Made by a program: the position numbers and the translations under genes. Source: Minisyncoccota bacterium (GTDB taxonomy: Bacteria; Patescibacteriota; Minisyncoccia; UBA6257; 2-01-FULL-56-20). Taken from it: a stretch of 64,000 nucleotides of DNA. The notes under the pieces were generated by a model. That model worked only from the letters and a program-made list of their open reading frames with translations. It was not told where the DNA came from and made no database searches. The stretch is taken from assembly GCA_022843285.1 (NCBI GenBank), contig JALHNY010000005.1, forward strand, positions 10,315 to 74,314. Direction: 5' to 3'. Positions 6,175 to 55,380 of the stretch are shown here, one piece after another; within the stretch, counting starts at the first letter, position 1, and every line of letters starts with the position of its first letter.

Positions 6175-6774
6175 ATGACGACCTCCACCCCGTACACCCC
6201 CGCCGACGTTCGCTTGCTCGCGCCGCAGAAGCACGCCTTCAACGAAACCGTCGTCGTCGGGTACCACCGCTTGCTCGCCACCGCCGAGGCGCACGCCGCC
6301 GCGAAGACGCTCGTCGAGAACCTGAAGGTGACTGATTCGCTCAAGGTCTGCGAGACGCTCGACACGATTCGCCACCTCATCGAGGTGACGATGGCCGAAG
6401 ACGACGAGGGCGAGGCTGACCTGGCCGCGACGCTGGAGCGCGTGGCCTCGCTGCTCAGCAGCCCGGCGCTCGCACCCCTGACCGTCGTAGTCGTCGACTC
6501 GCTCACCGCGATGGGTGACCCGTCGTTCGGGAAGCCTGCTCCGCTCGCAGCGCAGACCGACACGACCGACCCGCACACCGGCCGCCGCACGCGTATCGAA
6601 GGCAAGCTCCGCTTCATCGGGGAGGCTTCGCAGAACCGTCACCCCGACAACGCGTGGAAGGTGGTCGGGTACCGCGACACGAAGGCTGGAGCCGCCGGTC
6701 TCGGGTACGGCTACGGCCACACGTTCGATGCTGCCGTCGACGACCTGAAGAAGCAGCAGAAGAAGGGGAGCTGA
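6175..6774 (+). CDS. hypothetical protein
   Basis: AAAGGAG RBS ahead of the ATG (MTTSTPY...). In frame with ORF 6007-6774. Confidence 0.55.
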   Translation: MTTSTPYTPADVRLLAPQKHAFNETVVVGYHRLLATAEAHAAAKTLVENLKVTDSLKVCETLDTIRHLIEVTMAEDDEGEADLAATLERVASLLSSPALAPLTVVVVDSLTAMGDPSFGKPAPLAAQTDTTDPHTGRRTRIEGKLRFIGEASQNRHPDNAWKVVGYRDTKAGAAGLGYGYGHTFDAAVDDLKKQQKKGS

Positions 6775-11609: not shown

Positions 11610-11618
11610 AACGAGAAA

Positions 11619-11645
11619 GGGCCCCGCAGTCGCCCGCGGGGCCCC
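11619..11645. terminator. GC-rich hairpin (GGGCCCCGC ... GCGGGGCCC) between convergent operons
   Basis: Perfect 9-bp stem. A T-rich tail follows only in the minus-strand reading. Confidence 0.45.
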
Positions 11646-11682: not shown

Positions 11683-11788
11683 TTAGCGCTTGCTGCGCTT
11701 GTTCTTCAGGCACTGGCCCTTGCGCTTTCCGCGCTTGACCACGCCGTGCTTGCAGTGACGCTTCTTCCTGCGGTGCATGATTTCCATG
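11683..11788 (-). CDS. 34-aa highly basic micro-protein (MEIMHRRKKRHCKHGVVKRGKRKGQCLKNKRSKR)
   Basis: Not in the ORF track, which omits ORFs under 60 aa. AAGGAGG RBS 7 nt upstream of the ATG; ends in a TAA stop. Confidence 0.6.
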
Positions 11789-11850
11789 TCGTCGTTCCTC
11801 CTTTTCTTTCAGAGTCGCTCAGTACGTGCAGCGTTGCGAGAGCGCGGACC

Positions 11851-11979
11851 TTAGCGCTTGCCCTTCAGGCACTTCTTCGCGTGCGCGCGGTAGCTGTGAG
11901 TCGACTTGTACTTCGCCGACTTCGCGTTCCACTCGCGGGCGCACTTCTTCATCTTCGAGCCCTGTTTCGCCATGGTCAT
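11851..11979 (-). CDS. 40-42-aa highly basic micro-protein (M(TM)AKQGSKMKKCAREWNAKSAKYKSTHSYRAHAKKCLKGKR)
   Basis: AAGGAG RBS. Its ATG overlaps the upstream stop (ATGA). Confidence 0.55.
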   Translation of the reverse strand: MTMAKQGSKMKKCAREWNAKSAKYKSTHSYRAHAKKCLKGKR

Positions 11980-12281
11980 TTCTCCTTCAGCTTGTCGTTC
12001 GCGAACCATCCGCCGGCGCCGCCCAGGACAGCAGCAGCGAGCAGCCACCCCCACAACGGGAGCGTGATGTTGAAGAGCGTGACCGGCGTCTGCAGCAGCT
12101 CGGTGGTGGTCGGTTGCGCGCTGGGCTGAACCGAGGAGCCCGTCGACCCGACACCCGAGAGCATCATCACCGCGCTGTCGTCGCCGAGCGCGCCGCCGCT
12201 CGCCTCGCCGAGGCCGGAGATGAACCGTCCCCCGGTGGGCGTGACGTTCAGCATGCCGAGCAGGTGCGCGTTGTTCGTCAT
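11976..12281 (-). CDS. small membrane protein (C-proximal TM helix)
   Basis: Hydrophobic segment LPLWGWLLAAAVLGGAGGWF. Confidence 0.5.
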   Translation of the reverse strand: MTNNAHLLGMLNVTPTGGRFISGLGEASGGALGDDSAVMMLSGVGSTGSSVQPSAQPTTTELLQTPVTLFNITLPLWGWLLAAAVLGGAGGWFANDKLKEK

Positions 12282-12287
12282 GAGCTC

Positions 12288-12728
12288 TTACCGGCGCAGG
12301 GCGACGACGAGGCCGAGGCCGAGGGCCGCAGCGAGGGCGAGACCGACCGGCACGGCGACGTTGGACCAACCGGCGGCCGAAGCGTTCGCCTCAGCGATGC
12401 GGGCCTGCGTCTGGAGCGCGGCGTAGTCGGTGGCCGCCTGCGCCTGGTCTCGAGCTGCGCCTCGACCGGTGACGGAGTCGACGATGCCCGTGACGCCGCC
12501 GGTGATGGAACCGACCGCGTCGGTGAACCAGTCGCCGAAGCCCCGGAGGCCTCCACCGCGAACGCCGCCGAAGGCAGCACCGCTGGTCGCGACCGCGAGG
12601 TCAGGGCGCTGCGTGCGGCGCAGGCCCATCGTGGGCCCCTTGGGCACGTACTGCGCCTGCGTCGCGGGCGAGAACATGCCGAGCGCGGCGGGGCTCATGT
12701 TCGGATTGGCGCAGTAGAGGTGAGCCAT
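12288..12728 (-). CDS. membrane-anchored Gly/Ala-rich protein (C-terminal TM helix)
   Basis: Hydrophobic C-terminus VAVPVGLALAAALGLGLVVAL. Confidence 0.5.
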   Translation of the reverse strand: MAHLYCANPNMSPAALGMFSPATQAQYVPKGPTMGLRRTQRPDLAVATSGAAFGGVRGGGLRGFGDWFTDAVGSITGGVTGIVDSVTGRGAARDQAQAATDYAALQTQARIAEANASAAGWSNVAVPVGLALAAALGLGLVVALRR

Positions 12729-13167: not shown

Positions 13168-13781
13168 GTGACCACCTCTTCACCTTCGGCTGCATCGAAG
13201 TCGGGCGTACGCCGGCACTTCTTCTTGGTGACTTCGCCCTCGATGGGCTTGGCGTGCGCGCCGACGTCGCCGAAGACGTCGTCGCCGAGAATGACGGCGT
13301 CGCCGTTGGCCATCTTCCGGCCTCGACCACGACCTCGAGCGCGTCGAGGTTCAGCGTCCCCCTCCGAGGTCCCGCTGAACGCCGACGTCTCGTTTTTCAG
13401 AACGAAGAAGGCCACGCCCATCAGCGCGGCGACCCCTAAGCCGATGAAGAGCGGCTGCTTCCACAGCGGCTGCTGCACGAGCCCGGTGTTGGTAGCACCG
13501 GTCACGCTCACGGGACCCGGCGCCTTCACCGGCGCGCGGTGACCCGAGCCCGCGAGCTTCCGCAGCTGCTCGAGCACGTTCGCGTCGACGCTGCCCACCG
13601 ACTGCTGCAGCGCGCGCGTCACTTCTGCGGAGGTGTTGGACCCGAAGATGCCGTCGACCTTGAGCGGCCCGTAGCCCATCGCGTTGAGCAGCGTCTGCGC
13701 TTCAGCGACCGTCGGAGAAGACACGTTCCCCACCGGCGCCACGCGCTGACCTGCGAACTGATGGACGTACGCGGGGTGCAT
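13164..13781 (-). CDS. peptidoglycan-binding-domain protein with a TM helix
   Basis: AEAQTLLNAMGYGPLKVDGIFGSNTSAEVTRALQQ matches the PG_binding_1 fold pattern. Central TM helix LFIGLGVAALMGVAFFV. Confidence 0.55.
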   Translation of the reverse strand: MHPAYVHQFAGQRVAPVGNVSSPTVAEAQTLLNAMGYGPLKVDGIFGSNTSAEVTRALQQSVGSVDANVLEQLRKLAGSGHRAPVKAPGPVSVTGATNTGLVQQPLWKQPLFIGLGVAALMGVAFFVLKNETSAFSGTSEGDAEPRRARGRGRGRKMANGDAVILGDDVFGDVGAHAKPIEGEVTKKKCRRTPDFDAAEGEEVVT

Positions 13782-13787
13782 GGTGCG

Positions 13788-14714
13788 TCACTTCTTCCGG
13801 GTGAGGAAGAACACGCCGACGCCGATGGCCACGACGGCAGCAGCGCCGCCGATGTAGAGCCCGGTGTTCGACGCCGGCGCTGCAGCGGCGCCGCGCGGCC
13901 CCATCGTATTGTTGATGAGCGGCCCGAGCTGGTCGGCGAGCGAGTTGGTGCCGGTGGGCGTGTTGGGCGCGATGTACTGGTTCTCGGCCTGAATGCCGCC
14001 ACCGGGCGTGGTGTTCGACGTCGACGTGCTCGAGGGCACGCGGAACGCCATGATGTTCTCCATCTGCTCCTGAATCGCTTCGAACGCGGCGACTCGCACC
14101 TGCTCGTCAGCTGACGTGCGGCGACCGGCGAAGAGGACGTTCCAGGGGCGCTTCGTACCGGCGTCGGCCTGCGCGATGGCGCCCTTGATGGCGTTGCGGA
14201 CCCCGGTCATGAAGTTGCGCGTCGCCGTGTCGCGCGACGAAGCGGCCTTGAGCTGGTTCCACTTCAGCCCGACCTGCGCGGCGAAGCTCGAATCAGCGGG
14301 CGTGTACGGCACGGGCCCGTAGTTCGGGTCCTTGATGCCGAGCACGTCGTGCTGCTTGTTGACGGCGGTCACCCACGCGCGGTTGGTGCCGAAGAAGTCG
14401 GCCGCGCTCCACGCTTCGTCGAACTCGAACTCGTCGAAGAGCGGGGTGGCGCCGAAGCTCCCGGCGCCGGCCGAGCTGAGCGCACCGAAGCCGCCCGCTC
14501 CTGCGAGACCGCGTGACGTCGGACCGACGAGGCCGTACGCGCTCGGCTGCACGAGCATGCCTCGAGCCTGCGAGGCGTTGCCGAAGAGCTTGCTGACCTG
14601 CGGCGCTTTGACGGGCACCTTCTGCTGCACACCGCGGGCGTTGGTGAGCAGCCGCTGGCCGAGCTGAGAAGAGCTCGGGGGCTTCGCACGAAACTGGTTG
14701 AAGAGGTTGAGCAC
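13788..14714 (-). CDS. membrane-anchored Gly/Ala/Pro-rich protein (C-terminal TM helix)
   Basis: C-terminus YIGGAAAVVAIGVGVFFLTRKK. Confidence 0.55.
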   Translation of the reverse strand: MLNLFNQFRAKPPSSSQLGQRLLTNARGVQQKVPVKAPQVSKLFGNASQARGMLVQPSAYGLVGPTSRGLAGAGGFGALSSAGAGSFGATPLFDEFEFDEAWSAADFFGTNRAWVTAVNKQHDVLGIKDPNYGPVPYTPADSSFAAQVGLKWNQLKAASSRDTATRNFMTGVRNAIKGAIAQADAGTKRPWNVLFAGRRTSADEQVRVAAFEAIQEQMENIMAFRVPSSTSTSNTTPGGGIQAENQYIAPNTPTGTNSLADQLGPLINNTMGPRGAAAAPASNTGLYIGGAAAVVAIGVGVFFLTRKK

Positions 14715-19088: not shown

Positions 19089-19733
19089 TTACTTGCCGAG
19101 CGGGCTCTTGATGACGCCGCGCAGGAAGAGCGTCACGAGCACGCCCGTGGTGGTCGTCGGCGCGGTGTAGCCGCCGGCAATCCAGGCCGCGTCGTTGAAG
19201 CGCATCTTGCAGCTGATGTCATCGTTATCCCGGAGCTGCTGGGGAACGAAGAGCGTCGGGGCTGCGGCGACCGAGGGCACGCCCACCGAGGCGGCGGCCT
19301 GACCGGCACCGGCGACCTCGTTCGAGAAGCCCGAGAGGCCGTACCCGCTGGGGTACTTGATGACCGGGCCGTTCGTGATGATGCGGCGGTTGAACCGGAG
19401 GTCCAGCGACGCGTTGCCCGCCAGGCGGCGGAAGTCGGTGAACGCGGTCAGCACGTTGCCGATGGCCTCGCGCGGGTGGAGACCGACGCGGAACACGGCG
19501 ACCTCGTCACCAGCGGCGATGCGGCCCGACTGGGGGAGGTTGCAGTGCTGGTCGTTCTTGTTCTGGATGTCGCGGAAGAAGATGAACTCGGTGCCGTTGG
19601 CGATGGCGCCAGCCGGGATGAAGACCGAGTCGTACACGTCGTCTTCGCGCAGCTCGACCTGCTGAATGGCCTTGCCGAGGGCGGGGATATACAACTCACC
19701 GGGCTTGTTCGTGGGGACGGCAATCTGGTTCAT
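19089..19733 (-). CDS. beta-rich structural protein; candidate major capsid protein
   Basis: 214 aa. Its N-terminus, VP(T/S)....PG(E/Q)LYIP, is shared with the paralog at 39741. The function is inferred only from context and composition. Confidence 0.45.
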   Translation of the reverse strand: MNQIAVPTNKPGELYIPALGKAIQQVELREDDVYDSVFIPAGAIANGTEFIFFRDIQNKNDQHCNLPQSGRIAAGDEVAVFRVGLHPREAIGNVLTAFTDFRRLAGNASLDLRFNRRIITNGPVIKYPSGYGLSGFSNEVAGAGQAAASVGVPSVAAAPTLFVPQQLRDNDDISCKMRFNDAAWIAGGYTAPTTTTGVLVTLFLRGVIKSPLGK

Positions 19734-22314: not shown

Positions 22315-22947
22315 TCAAGTACGGCTTGAACGCTTCTTGCGCTTCCTGGCAAAGAAGCCGCCCCGGTTCAAGTTGTTCTCGGTGCCGGTGACGACGCGCA
22401 GGTTCTCGCGCCGGTTGTCGAGGCGGTCCCGATTCTGGTGGTCGACGTAGAGGCCCGTGAGCTTCTCGCCGCCCTTCAGCTCGCGGTGCAGGAGACGCGT
22501 CTTGCGGCCGTCCTGGTAGCTCGCGTAGCCCTCGGTGACGCGCAGCGGGAAGTGGATGCGCTCAGCGTCATGCAGGTCGACCGACGTCCACCGTCCGTCG
22601 GCGAGCTGCAGCTCGGCGAACTTCCCCTTCGTGCGCATCTTCGGGGGCACGCCGCACTTGGCGACCTTCCGGCCCCAGTTGCGCAGCGCGATGACGGCCT
22701 TCCGAGAGCAGCCGTGCTGCTTCACCATGCCCTCCATGCGCGCGTTGAAGGAGAGCGCGCGCTGAGCGAGCGCTTCGTCGGCCGGCGTCCACCTCGAGCA
22801 CTTCTTCCGCTTCAGCTCGGCGAGCCGCGGAAGTCGTGCACGCGTGGAGTCTTCGCTGGCCTCTTTCGAACGCGCGTCACGCGCCCACGCCTTGATGGCC
22901 GCAGGCGTCATGTTCACCGACTTCTTGAAATCCCCGCAGAGGCTCAT
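22315..22947 (-). CDS. HNH endonuclease
   Basis: The motif VDHQNRDRLDNRRENLRVVTGTENNLNR is an HNH motif. Confidence 0.6.
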   Translation of the reverse strand: MSLCGDFKKSVNMTPAAIKAWARDARSKEASEDSTRARLPRLAELKRKKCSRWTPADEALAQRALSFNARMEGMVKQHGCSRKAVIALRNWGRKVAKCGVPPKMRTKGKFAELQLADGRWTSVDLHDAERIHFPLRVTEGYASYQDGRKTRLLHRELKGGEKLTGLYVDHQNRDRLDNRRENLRVVTGTENNLNRGGFFARKRKKRSSRT

Positions 22948-24281: not shown

Positions 24282-24779
24282 TTACTTCAGGTGAGCCCAT
24301 CGCTCACGCTTGATGATGTTCCACACCGTTCGGACGTGGAGCTTGAAGCGCTTCGACAGGACGGTGGGCGTCGTTCCGGCGTCGTAGGCTGCTCGAATCT
24401 GAAGGACCTGCTTCGAGGTGAGCTTTCCGTGTACCGCGCGCTCGCCGTGAACGTGACGTCCCTTGGCGACCATGTCTCGAGAGTTGTCGAGCGGCGTTCC
24501 CAGAAAAAGGTGAGTGGGCCGAACGCACAGAGGCGTGTCGCATCGGTGGCAGACGCTCAAGCCTTTGGGGATAGCTCCGTTGTAAATGAGCCAAGAGGCT
24601 CGGTGCGCCGTGGTAGCCGACGGCATCGAACGGAGCTTGAAGACCCCGTACTTGGGACCGGTCCGAGCACCGACTCGTCCTGTAGGTCGCCACAGCCAGC
24701 ATTTTGCTCCCTTGATGAACTTCGTCGTGAAGCGCTGCTTTTCGGCTGCCGTGATGTTCATCCCGGCAGTGTGCCCCAT
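24282..24779 (-). CDS. HNH endonuclease (HNH_3 type)
   Basis: The motif CHRCDTPLCVRPTHLFLGTPLDNSRDM matches the HNH_3 pattern. Confidence 0.55.
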   Translation of the reverse strand: MGHTAGMNITAAEKQRFTTKFIKGAKCWLWRPTGRVGARTGPKYGVFKLRSMPSATTAHRASWLIYNGAIPKGLSVCHRCDTPLCVRPTHLFLGTPLDNSRDMVAKGRHVHGERAVHGKLTSKQVLQIRAAYDAGTTPTVLSKRFKLHVRTVWNIIKRERWAHLK

Positions 24780-47581: not shown

Positions 47582-47877
47582 CAGCCGTGCTCCTTCCTCA
47601 AGTTGAGTGTGAAGTCGCGAGGCCTCAGCTTGAGGCTCTGCACGGTGCTCCACGTCAGGTAGCACATGTGACAGTCGCTCTTTCCGCGGTACGCAGGGCC
47701 GCCCTGCGCATGTTCATTGTCGTCGAGCGAGAGCCCACAAAGCGTGTGATAGTTCCCGGGCATCTCGACCTTGATGTGGACCTGGTCTTCGGTCCCGGTG
47801 TCGAGCACAGCGTGAACGAGCACGACCCACGGCTGCTGCATCTTCATCGGTGAGGGCAGAGGGCGCATGCGAATCAA
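47581..47877 (-). CDS. hypothetical protein
   Basis: 98-aa ORF. Confidence 0.45.
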   Translation of the reverse strand: MIRMRPLPSPMKMQQPWVVLVHAVLDTGTEDQVHIKVEMPGNYHTLCGLSLDDNEHAQGGPAYRGKSDCHMCYLTWSTVQSLKLRPRDFTLNLRKEHG

Positions 47878-47894
47878 CGTGCATCAACTCTTCC

Positions 47895-47926
47895 CTTGAC
47901 GTCAAGAACAGATTGACAGAAAACCG
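47895..47926 (+). promoter_or_regulatory. promoter-like tandem TTGACG / TTGACA elements upstream of the ATPase gene
   Basis: cTTGACGtcaagaacagaTTGACAgaaaacc sits immediately 5' of the ATG. Confidence 0.35.
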
Positions 47927-47933
47927 CGCACCC

Positions 47934-48764
47934 ATGCCGCTCATCCGCCTCGACAAGAAGCACGTCATCGACACCGACTCGAAGGAAGTGAAGGGTGACG
48001 GTCTGCGCGTGTGGATTGGCGGCGAGCCCGGCTCAGGGAAGTCGAACGCGTGCATGCTCATCGTCGCGCAGTACATCGAGCAGGGCGGGCAGGCGCTCAT
48101 CCTCGACGTGCACGGCGAGTACAGCGCGCTCTGGTCGCTCCGCCCCGGCGGAAAGCGGCGCATCGTCACCTACGGGTACGGCGACGGGCACCCCGTCGGC
48201 GAAGAGTCAGTCGAGCTGGTGATGAACCACCTGCGCGACGGCCACTCGGTGGTGCTCGACCTCTCACACTGGGCGCTCAAGCCTCGAGTGTGCGCCGCGT
48301 TCGTCGGCGACCTCATCCATGAGCTCTACGTGTACCGGCAACAGAACCCGAAGGGGAACACGCTCGTGCTCGTCGAAGAGGCTCACATCTTCGCGCCGCA
48401 GAACCAGTCGGTCGGCGACGCCGACAACATCCGCACCTTCGTGCTCGCGCTCACCGGTGGCCGGAAGTTCGGCCTGCACGTCGTGATGGCCTCGCAGCGC
48501 CAGTCGCTCGTCGACATCAACGTCGTGAGCCAGTGCAACGTGCGTCTGTTCTTGCGCGTCTCAGAGCAGAAGGACTGGCGCAACGTGGTGCGGAACTACC
48601 TGCCGCCGAAGTGCTCAGTCACCTGGTACAAAGACGACAAGACTGACCTCAACAAGTTCGATTCGGGCGACGCCATTCTGGTGTCGCGCTGGTTTCCGGT
48701 CGAACGTGTCCACCTGAACCAGTCGGCCATCCCGGTCGACGTCACCGTCGAGCGTGCATCGTGA
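47934..48764 (+). CDS. FtsK/HerA-superfamily ATPase, candidate genome-packaging ATPase
   Basis: Walker A GEPGSGKSN, the HerA-type LDVHGEY motif, and Walker B LVLVEEAH. About 277 aa. Confidence 0.65.
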   Translation: MPLIRLDKKHVIDTDSKEVKGDGLRVWIGGEPGSGKSNACMLIVAQYIEQGGQALILDVHGEYSALWSLRPGGKRRIVTYGYGDGHPVGEESVELVMNHLRDGHSVVLDLSHWALKPRVCAAFVGDLIHELYVYRQQNPKGNTLVLVEEAHIFAPQNQSVGDADNIRTFVLALTGGRKFGLHVVMASQRQSLVDINVVSQCNVRLFLRVSEQKDWRNVVRNYLPPKCSVTWYKDDKTDLNKFDSGDAILVSRWFPVERVHLNQSAIPVDVTVERAS

Positions 48765-55272: not shown

Positions 55273-55356
55273 GGGCACGATGCTCTACTGGACTGAGCGC
55301 CGGGCTGTAAACCCGGTGAGCGCAAGCTCAAGCAGGTTCGATTCCTGCCGGGCCCA
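55273..55356 (+). tRNA. tRNA-Tyr (anticodon GTA), type II with a long variable arm, no encoded CCA
   Basis: Acceptor stem GGGCACG/CGGGCCC with one A-G mismatch. D-stem GCTC/GAGC. Anticodon stem CCGGG/CCCGG with loop CTGTAAA. Variable arm GAGC-GCAA-GCTC. T-arm GCAGG-TTCGATT-CCTGC. Confidence 0.55.
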
Positions 55357-55380
55357 CTCCTTCTACGAGGAGAAACACCA

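Follow-up and report, generated by a model that had tools for sequence, protein, structure and literature searches.

The 64,000-nucleotide stretch of contig JALHNY010000005.1 analyzed here (the window) encodes two very small and extremely basic proteins, pep1 and pep3. Judging from the alignments, these form an undescribed "polybasic Cys-loop" family, with the pattern C-[KR]-[FH]-G, 5-9 mostly basic residues, G-x-C and a tail rich in lysine and arginine (K/R). The window (G+C 65%) is viral along its whole length. Both genes lie in its long minus-strand late/structural operon, which runs from ~36.7 kb down to 11.68 kb and holds a further small basic open reading frame (ORF), pep2. A previous sequence-only reading of this DNA had grouped the three peptides in one protamine-like family with a common RSKR or KGKR ending. 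That observation was partly confirmed and its interpretation partly supported. The three ORFs were all recovered, on the minus strand, with pep1 spanning 11683-11787, and the conserved feature of the family is, at the level of the compared proteins, the two-cysteine loop and not the C-terminal ending. We tentatively suggest that pep1 and pep3 act on the packaged genome inside the virion. The peptide genes and the elements next to them are the following (aa, amino acids; nt, nucleotides; SD, Shine-Dalgarno).

11683..11787, minus strand: pep1, polybasic Cys-loop microprotein of 34 aa, net charge +15, last gene of the late operon; MEIMHRRKKRHCKHGVVKRGKRKGQCLKNKRSKR
11797..11803, minus strand: SD site of pep1, AAGGAGG, 9 nt from the ATG
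11618..11645, minus strand: intrinsic terminator, 12-bp hairpin with 10 G-C and a T-rich tail, just past pep1 and between convergent genes; fold z = -3.5
28850..28993, minus strand: pep3, polybasic Cys-loop microprotein of 47 aa, net charge +22, with an aromatic hydrophobic C-terminus; MKTPRRRKCKHGRRRNGRCPSKSRASVKRRVKRRAPKKSWFKKLFSW
28990..29754, minus strand: protein with a transglutaminase core (papain-like Cys-His-Asp), Pfam Transglut_core 9e-11, conserved neighbor of Cys-loop peptides
11851..11973 (40 aa, likelier) or 11851-11979 (42 aa), minus strand: pep2, basic ORF with two Cys, MAKQGSK...KKCLKGKR
11982-11987, minus strand: SD site of pep2, AAGGAG, 8 nt upstream, a spacing that fits the second ATG (40 aa)

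The peptide genes

All three peptides have the G+C content at third codon positions (GC3) of real genes (0.89 for pep1, 0.93 for pep2 and 0.81 for pep3), the values for long opposite-strand ORFs being 0.61-0.67. The strong ribosome-binding sites previously noted for the first two genes were recovered (AAGGAGG at 9 nt and AAGGAG at 8 nt), and they are among the strongest SD sites of the operon. The 34-aa and 40-aa genes were also predicted by a metagenome gene caller in exact copies of the virus, which are present in several sequencing runs. Spurious ORFs were ruled out for pep1 and pep3 by their orthologues, the codon evidence given below and GC3. An RNA element in place of a gene was likewise rejected, the Rfam matches being sub-threshold only and due to the terminator hairpin.

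The net charges are +15 (pep1), +13 (pep2) and +22 (pep3), and pep1 and pep3 are almost without a hydrophobic core. A K/R content above 40% had been attributed to the three peptides; this holds for pep1 (R 7/34, K 9/34) and pep3 (R 12/47, K 10/47), both with 47% K+R and with 21-26% Arg, and fails for pep2 (33-35%). None of the three had a match in Pfam (E <= 10), PHROGs or NCBIfam, and the only match among PDB chain sequences was a chance one to a kinase Gly-loop (E = 0.8). The profile searches that the sequence-only reading had called for therefore led to no known family. Small basic ribosomal proteins (bL34, bL36, bS22 and similar) were rejected as candidates, with no Pfam, NCBIfam or PDB match, as was an AT-hook: the loop K-R-G-K-R-K-G contains neither Pro nor R-G-R and has no Pfam match.

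Conservation of the pep1 family

Orthologues of pep1, 32 aa long, are the last gene before the terminator in two related loci, L011 (MELMHKKRKCRFGVAKRGKRKGQCLKRRRSKR) and L048 (MEIMHKKRKCKFGVAKKGKRKGQCLKSKRRKK), in which the neighboring proteins are ~60% identical. Between pep1 and the L011 gene, 19 codons are identical, 6 differ synonymously and 7 non-synonymously, with one in-frame 6-nt indel, and the flanks diverge with out-of-frame gaps. Members of the family are 27-37 aa long, with the consensus MAKK-x-C[KR][FH]G[VK][VA]KRG[KR]RKGQCLKxKR followed by a K/R tail. In pattern scans, ORFs of the pep1 design with a length of 27-35 aa turned up in 2 loci from IMG/VR and 25 from metagenomes; in all, the family was seen in ~30 metagenomic viral loci of 32-70% G+C. 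Because fragments of the motif (RGKRKGQC, C[KR][FH]G) served as search patterns, the apparent conservation is partly due to ascertainment.

We defined the pep1 type from 24 loci as C-[KR]-[FHYN]-G-x4-G-[KR]-R-K-G-Q-C-[LR]-K, with 13 residues between the cysteines and then a K/R tail; pep1 fits this definition along its full length. All 24 core sequences have the same C, G, G, R, K, G, Q, C and K, encoded by 2-5 different codons at these positions, and per pair of cores 5.0 of the 17 codons differ synonymously and 3.0 non-synonymously. Because of this variety of synonymous codons at invariant residues, and because members occur both at 32-33% and at 60-70% G+C, the pep1 family is, on the evidence of these alignments, conserved at the protein level across independent genomes. 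The low-G+C members (32-33%) are at L028 911-1006 and L034 279-371, the latter near AbrB-like and transposase-like genes, and the family therefore extends well beyond the high-GC virus group.

Tandem forms were also present. P0117 has two pep1-type loops, and a 75-aa protein of L046 has a pep1-type loop and then a second, shorter Cys pair that is pep3-like by eye (z = 3.0 against pep3). In L025 a pep1-type gene lies ~650 nt upstream of the capsid gene, and in 11 distinct loci such a gene directly precedes a conserved membrane protein with a poly-Arg tail. This pair (L014 4399-4701, L015 10183-10506, L023 6137-6457 and 8 more) consists of the pep1-type gene and a 100-150-aa protein with L-x-G-L-G, one transmembrane helix and a poly-Arg end, and it is followed in the same loci by genes for more small proteins, with RRRR or KRRRK as their last residues. 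The species-representative genomes yielded no pep1-type gene. When 1.8 billion representatives were searched in full by HMMER with pep1 as query, only 4 matches had E <= 1e-3, a low yield that we attribute to the 34-aa length of the query.

pep3 and its relationship to pep1

The start of pep3 lies in an ATGA overlap with the stop of the transglutaminase-like gene, which points to translational coupling. An orthologue in L041 occupies the same ATGA-coupled place after a transglutaminase-like gene (MMHRRPKKKCKFGRRKDGLCRKRRRARRAPRKKRGLFAWLFGR; z = 7.9), and in L049 a 181-aa protein begins with the pep3 module (z = 7.4). In L017, L030 and L031, too, a pep1-type gene has a transglutaminase homologue within ~1-1.5 kb on its upstream side, and Cys-loop genes adjoin the enzyme gene or lie near it in five lineages.

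The pattern common to pep1 and pep3 is C-K-[FH]-G...G-x-C, the pep3 loop being of 9 residues. In Smith-Waterman comparisons against shuffled sequences, pep1 and pep3 of the window scored z = 3.0 and pep1 and the pep3 orthologue z = 6.3 (0/2000 shuffles), and the pep1-family profile gave shuffle p = 0.01 and 0.0025 on the two pep3 sequences. On these scores, we take pep1 and pep3 as distant paralogues. The single family of three proposed earlier is thus reduced to two related members (z = 3.0-6.3), with pep2 unrelated to them. An N-terminal start M-x-(x)-M-H-[RK]-[RK] is common to pep1 (11776-11787), its orthologues, the L041 pep3 orthologue (6242-6260) and the family of a 165-aa basic protein of the operon (33781-33792), in which M1, M3, H4, R5 and R6 are invariant.

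The virus and a possible role of pep1 and pep3 in its core

Two other proteins of the window bear on the kind of virus that carries these peptides.

19089..19733, minus strand: 214-aa single-jelly-roll protein, probable major capsid protein, hallmark gene of the peptide-carrying virus group
47850-48764: HerA/FtsK-type (DUF87/HerA) P-loop ATPase, match below curated cut-offs

The 214-aa protein resembles the vertical single-jelly-roll capsid proteins of internal-membrane viruses. Its gene is the best conserved one of the group (92% identity to L011 versus ~60% for neighboring proteins), with >100 homologue clusters on contigs of up to 91 kb. Its best structural matches were SPV1 and the sphaerolipovirus-like P23-77, HHIV-2 and HCIV-1, and a BFVD fold search with the capsid model gave weak generic jelly rolls only. 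The homologues come from 40-91 kb contigs from soil, groundwater and freshwater (loci L011, L025 and L045-L049), a large uncultivated virus group, with one copy binned as 'Patescibacteria'. The 216-aa protein encoded beside the capsid gene, considered as a second jelly-roll capsid protein, looks beta-rich by eye, from sequence alone; profile comparison with the 214-aa protein revealed no similarity.

The operon encodes ~10 tail-anchored membrane proteins, on the strand that also carries the peptide genes and the gene of the jelly-roll capsid-like protein. Pfam and PHROGs matches are nearly absent among the operon's proteins. No portal, terminase or HK97 capsid matched in any search made, and no tailed-phage hallmark genes were found. 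Because of the putative HerA/FtsK ATPase, the ~10 tail-anchored membrane proteins and the lack of portal, terminase and HK97 matches, the gene content suggests a non-tailed, probably membrane-containing virus of ~85 kb.

In such a virus, pep1 and pep3 are possibly late virion-internal polycations that bind the packaged DNA, a proposal that we make tentatively. It is the most economical reading because they are basic microproteins in the structural module of an apparently non-tailed jelly-roll virus; in the loci seen, the peptide genes are always in the structural block. A charge of +15 over 34 aa and of +22 over 47 aa calls for a polyanion partner, and small protamine-like proteins are described in PMC6163548 and, for chloroviruses, in PMC3281028 as the usual DNA condensers of eukaryotic double-stranded DNA (dsDNA) viruses. 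The two peptides would be made abundantly together with the capsid and membrane proteins and would end inside the particle, where they would neutralize the charge of the packaged dsDNA and help to condense or organize it. Once the particle has left the reducing cytoplasm, the loop could be closed by its two invariant cysteines, or these could cross-link neighboring peptides, and the aromatic end of pep3 could hold the DNA to the presumed internal membrane. The earlier suggestion of DNA-condensing core proteins is thereby kept in a qualified form for two genuine basic microproteins of the structural module; pep2 is outside the family.

Several points weigh against this proposal. A non-specific polycation would not need a core as strictly conserved as KRGKRKGQCLK (a strictness exaggerated by the loop-seeded scans), which hints at a specific partner; protamines, in contrast, evolve fast. 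Motor-driven packaging works without condensing proteins, and to our knowledge no such protein has been described for PRD1, PM2 or P23-77. Membrane formation of the PRD1 type would point the basic tails that follow transmembrane helices at the capsid shell and not at the DNA. In addition, the peptides are not universal within the virus group, as far as the compared loci indicate. No pep1-type gene was found <=10 kb from the capsid gene in L045 and L047, and L048, whose capsid protein is 87% identical, has no pep3 after its transglutaminase-like gene.

The cationic loop between two cysteines would also fit membrane-active lysis or entry peptides that damage the host envelope, like disulfide beta-hairpin antimicrobials or the phage 'disruptin'. 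The late operon closes with pep2 and pep1, ~1.4-2 kb after the gene of a PG_binding_1 protein, and VanY and M23 peptidases are encoded in the corresponding region of relatives. However, the peptides have no signal peptide and almost no hydrophobic face (the pep1 loop has a mean hydrophobicity of -0.54 and a hydrophobic moment not above shuffles), no recognizable holin or endolysin gene adjoins them, and elsewhere the gene adjoins the capsid gene or heads the structural block instead of being part of a lysis cassette. We thus regard a role in lysis or entry as very unlikely.

pep2

The start of pep2 lies in an ATGA overlap with the stop of the upstream gene. We found no significant similarity of pep2 to pep1, to pep3 or to the proteins in the same slot of relatives (Smith-Waterman versus shuffles; pep1 profile p = 0.27). 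These slot proteins have 103 aa (L011), 85 aa (L048), 46 aa (L047) and 67 aa (L049), and only the place and the design of a small basic protein with two Cys recur. By these comparisons, pep2 is specific to its lineage and shows no detectable relationship to the pep1/pep3 family.

pep2 alone might be a fast-evolving or degenerating remnant, without conserved function, of the 85-103-aa basic protein of the slot. The 103-aa and 85-aa proteins are homologous to each other, and pep2 has only MAK... and CARE[WF] in common with the slot proteins, with scores not above shuffles. We consider this distinctly improbable in view of the GC3 of 0.93, the good SD site and the ATGA-coupled start. A small basic two-Cys protein also ends the operon in L047 (46 aa), L049 (67 aa) and L045 (51 aa), which suggests a role that is kept while the sequence turns over.

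The RSKR ending and basic C-termini

Two larger proteins of the operon had been included in the comparison of C-terminal endings.

33295..33792, minus strand: 165-aa basic protein, N-terminus M-x-MHRR invariant in its family, C-terminal GGGKRSKR at 33298-33312
31584..33284, minus strand: 566-aa protein, ends in RQRRSKR, with RRSKR at 31587-31601

Their endings, GGGKRSKR and RQRRSKR, are as previously described. Among the peptides pep2 does end in KGKR, and pep3, which ends in KKLFSW, departs from the proposed rule. The 85 predicted proteins of the window contain four copies of RSKR, and three of these are C-terminal. Three such ends among 85 C-termini exceed the expectation from composition (P ~1e-4 by column shuffle; ~1e-3 within the 16 basic tails alone), so that the enrichment foreseen as a check was indeed obtained. 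The recurrence is real in the genome of the window; by comparison of orthologues it is not a conserved signal, because the orthologues of the 165-aa and 566-aa proteins are without it. RSKR is absent from all six orthologues of the former (ends ...KLGGK/KLGSK or ...GGGL) and from those of the latter (REPR, RPPE, GWVK), and the ends of the pep1 family vary while being K/R-rich (RSKR, RRKK, RARKRR, RRRK). These results give no support to the incorporation or processing signal that had been proposed. We read the KRSKR and RRSKR of the 165-aa and 566-aa proteins as apparently recent, lineage-specific additions of polybasic tails. A DNA repeat behind the RSKR ends was considered and rejected: pep1 and the 165-aa gene have AAGCGCAGCAAGCG[C/A]TAAGG in common, merely preferred codons, and a simple repeat fails to explain the ends because the tail codons of the 566-aa protein differ from those of pep1.

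K/R-rich C-termini are in clade-wide excess, ~5- to 25-fold. In the window, 16 of the 85 proteins have >=3 K/R in the last six residues (2.9 expected, p = 3e-8), and in related loci with the canonical peptide 27 of 148 proteins have >=4 K/R (1.1 expected, p = 2e-29). About half of the basic C-termini of the window directly follow a C-terminal transmembrane helix and may reflect ordinary membrane topology. In related loci the basic tails are long Arg runs, often after L-x-G-x-G.

Such tails raise the alternative that they and the peptides are membrane or capsid tethers, which would bind anionic lipid head groups of the viral membrane or acidic patches beneath the capsid shell and glue together membrane, capsid and soluble virion proteins. 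Many basic C-termini of the window come right after a transmembrane helix (LTRKK, KLGKR, ALRR, KLKEK), and tails of poly-Arg would hardly pass through a membrane, so that by the positive-inside rule they would stay on the cytoplasmic, capsid-facing side. A conserved aromatic patch ends pep3 and its orthologue (WFKKLFSW, LFAWLFGR), and the pairing of a pep1-type gene with a membrane protein in 11 loci could be understood in the same way. Nevertheless, pep1 is without any hydrophobic anchor, the hydrophobic moment of the pep3 C-terminus is not above shuffles and the internal membrane is itself only presumed from the gene content. Tethering is, in our view, unlikely, and we continue to favor binding of pep1 and pep3 to packaged DNA.

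The L-x-G-x-G motif in late proteins

The 26 late proteins contain 16 copies of the motif [LIMF]-x-G-[LFIMV]-G where 2.8 are expected (z = 8), and the other 59 genes contain 2 (2.1 expected). Examples on the minus strand between 11600 and 36700 are the genes at 12288-12728, 11976-12281, 31584-33284 and 29754-31580. Motif positions are kept between orthologues (MMLSGVG/MMISGLG; LRGFGDWF/LAGLGDWF; FFGLG/MFGLG), and the motif is often found directly before poly-basic C-terminal tails, e.g., LPGLGRARRKRRRK and SLAGLGLFGRKRRRRRRSRR. It matches the adenovirus protease consensus, (M/I/L)XGX-G, and these sites may be maturation cleavage sites by analogy. pep1, pep2 and pep3 of the window are without L-x-G-x-G; relatives with it are P0117, which begins MFAGLG..., and the 51-aa protein of L045 (...SLAGLG...). 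A module ending ...(L)VWLDxLxxxGxLxGLG is present twice in the 566-aa protein (31584-33284) and twice in a 608-aa protein (29754-31580). In the latter it is accompanied by a GNAT domain and, at the C-terminus, by a RadC-like JAB domain. The arrangement might be polyprotein-like, with a protease of its own.

These sites bring up a further alternative, in which the peptides would be cofactors or DNA-sliding tethers of a maturation protease, like adenovirus pVIc, with polybasic segments keeping precursor proteins and protease on the DNA, with a peptide cysteine activating the papain-like enzyme or linking to it and with cleavage at L-x-G-x-G. pep3 is coupled to the transglutaminase-like gene in two lineages, and pep1-type genes lie near the enzyme gene in L017, L030 and L031; the enrichment of the motif in late proteins, its conserved positions, its frequent place before poly-basic tails and its resemblance to the adenovirus consensus would suit such a system. 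The cleavage is, however, a prediction, and the window peptides do not carry the motif themselves. It is just as possible that the enzyme is a true transglutaminase or serves another role; its fold differs from that of adenain, and in L048 the enzyme gene has no adjoining pep3. A cofactor role thus seems improbable to us. We give an equally slim chance to the combined picture of a bacterial virus group with an adenovirus-like core and maturation, in which peptides and tailed precursors would sit on the DNA, a papain-like or JAB protease would cut at L-x-G-x-G and the cysteine peptides would be its DNA-bound cofactor.

Other features of the virus and its relatives

The window further encodes the following.

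in the window: family A DNA polymerase
in the window: SNF2-type helicase and other helicases
in the window: primase-like protein
in the window: RNA ligase
in the window: uracil-DNA glycosylase family protein
55273-55357: tRNA-Tyr (GTA), the single tRNA of the window, among replication genes

The virus could not be connected to known phages: a megablast of 20 kb returned nothing, and in tblastn searches the 799-aa protein matched through its intein only and the 766-aa and 214-aa proteins not at all. Neither the 308-aa and 165-aa proteins nor the pep3 alignment had any match when scanned against IMG/VR; the divergent relatives were reached via the 165-aa, 308-aa and 214-aa proteins. The literature searched held no description of the virus group and no phage protamine-like proteins relevant to prokaryotic viruses.

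A GP88-family protein (24783-27182) contains an intein with a LAGLIDADG endonuclease. The intein is also present in L011, L041 and L048 and absent from the 427-aa orthologue of L007; the UvrD helicase of L015 is intein-bearing as well. The structural operon also contains two inserted HNH_3 homing-endonuclease genes (22315-22947 and 24282-24779). In L046, a distant relative with a capsid protein 37% identical, two IS605 OrfB/TnpB-type genes (1163-2347 and 13363-14547) and a phage-integrase gene lie near the capsid gene.

Significance

Polycationic peptides bound to the genome are characteristic of eukaryotic DNA viruses (adenoviruses, baculoviruses and chloroviruses), and in the standard picture of bacterial viruses naked DNA is packaged without such peptides. 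pep1 and pep3 represent a conserved, previously unannotated microprotein family in the structural module of an uncharacterized and widespread group, with a pep1-bearing contig reaching 138 kb. If they were core components, the strategy of DNA-condensing peptides would extend to prokaryotic jelly-roll viruses. If the whole system were adenovirus-like, chromatin-like genome organization and the maturation logic would either be older than the jelly-roll viruses of eukaryotes or have originated twice. Peptides of 30-47 aa can be synthesized and thus offer an easy experimental handle, and genes of fewer than 50 aa, lost in routine annotation, can rank among the most conserved of a virus.

Comparison with known systems

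Thanatin, arenicin, tachyplesin and the phage disruptin are, like pep1, tiny cationic peptides with a two-Cys loop. Unlike these beta-hairpins, the peptides described here have no export signal, hydrophobic N-terminus, amphipathic face or lysis-cassette context.

Protamines are small polycations as well, and mammalian protamine P1 also uses cysteines for cross-links. In pep1 and pep3, however, Arg makes up only 21-26% for a K+R of 47%, a strictly conserved structured loop takes the place of low-complexity Arg runs, and there is no homology and no Pfam match. Protamines and the basic proteins of baculoviruses (P6.9), chloroviruses and ascoviruses are presented in PMC6163548, PMC3281028 and PMC6669607 as small polycations that condense dsDNA for encapsidation.

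The adenovirus analogy, raised from the sequence alone on account of Arg-rich core peptides, was strengthened, in that the virus looks non-tailed with a jelly-roll capsid. Adenovirus Mu (pX), VII and V are, like pep1 and pep3, short and extremely basic, and they bind the packaged genome of an icosahedral dsDNA virus of the jelly-roll lineage. Adenovirus pVIc is a basic Cys-containing peptide that works with the viral cysteine protease, and the late proteins of the window are enriched in an L-x-G-x-G motif resembling the cleavage consensus of adenain. In contrast to adenoviruses, the peptides here show no sequence similarity and no Pfam match to Mu/pX or VII. They are direct genes of 30-47 aa and not cut from precursors, with neither (M/I/L)XGX-G nor (M/I/L)XGG-X in pep1, pep2 or pep3. 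They are K+R-rich with an invariant Cys pair, and the fold of the candidate protease differs. The host is also a bacterial one, as indicated by the SD sites and, in relatives, by a sigma-70-type factor and peptidoglycan-binding domains.

SPV1 (Portogloboviridae), P23-77, HHIV-2 and HCIV-1, the best structural matches of the 214-aa protein, are icosahedral viruses with an internal membrane and FtsK/HerA-type ATPases. Among them, SPV1 wraps its DNA with a basic protein.

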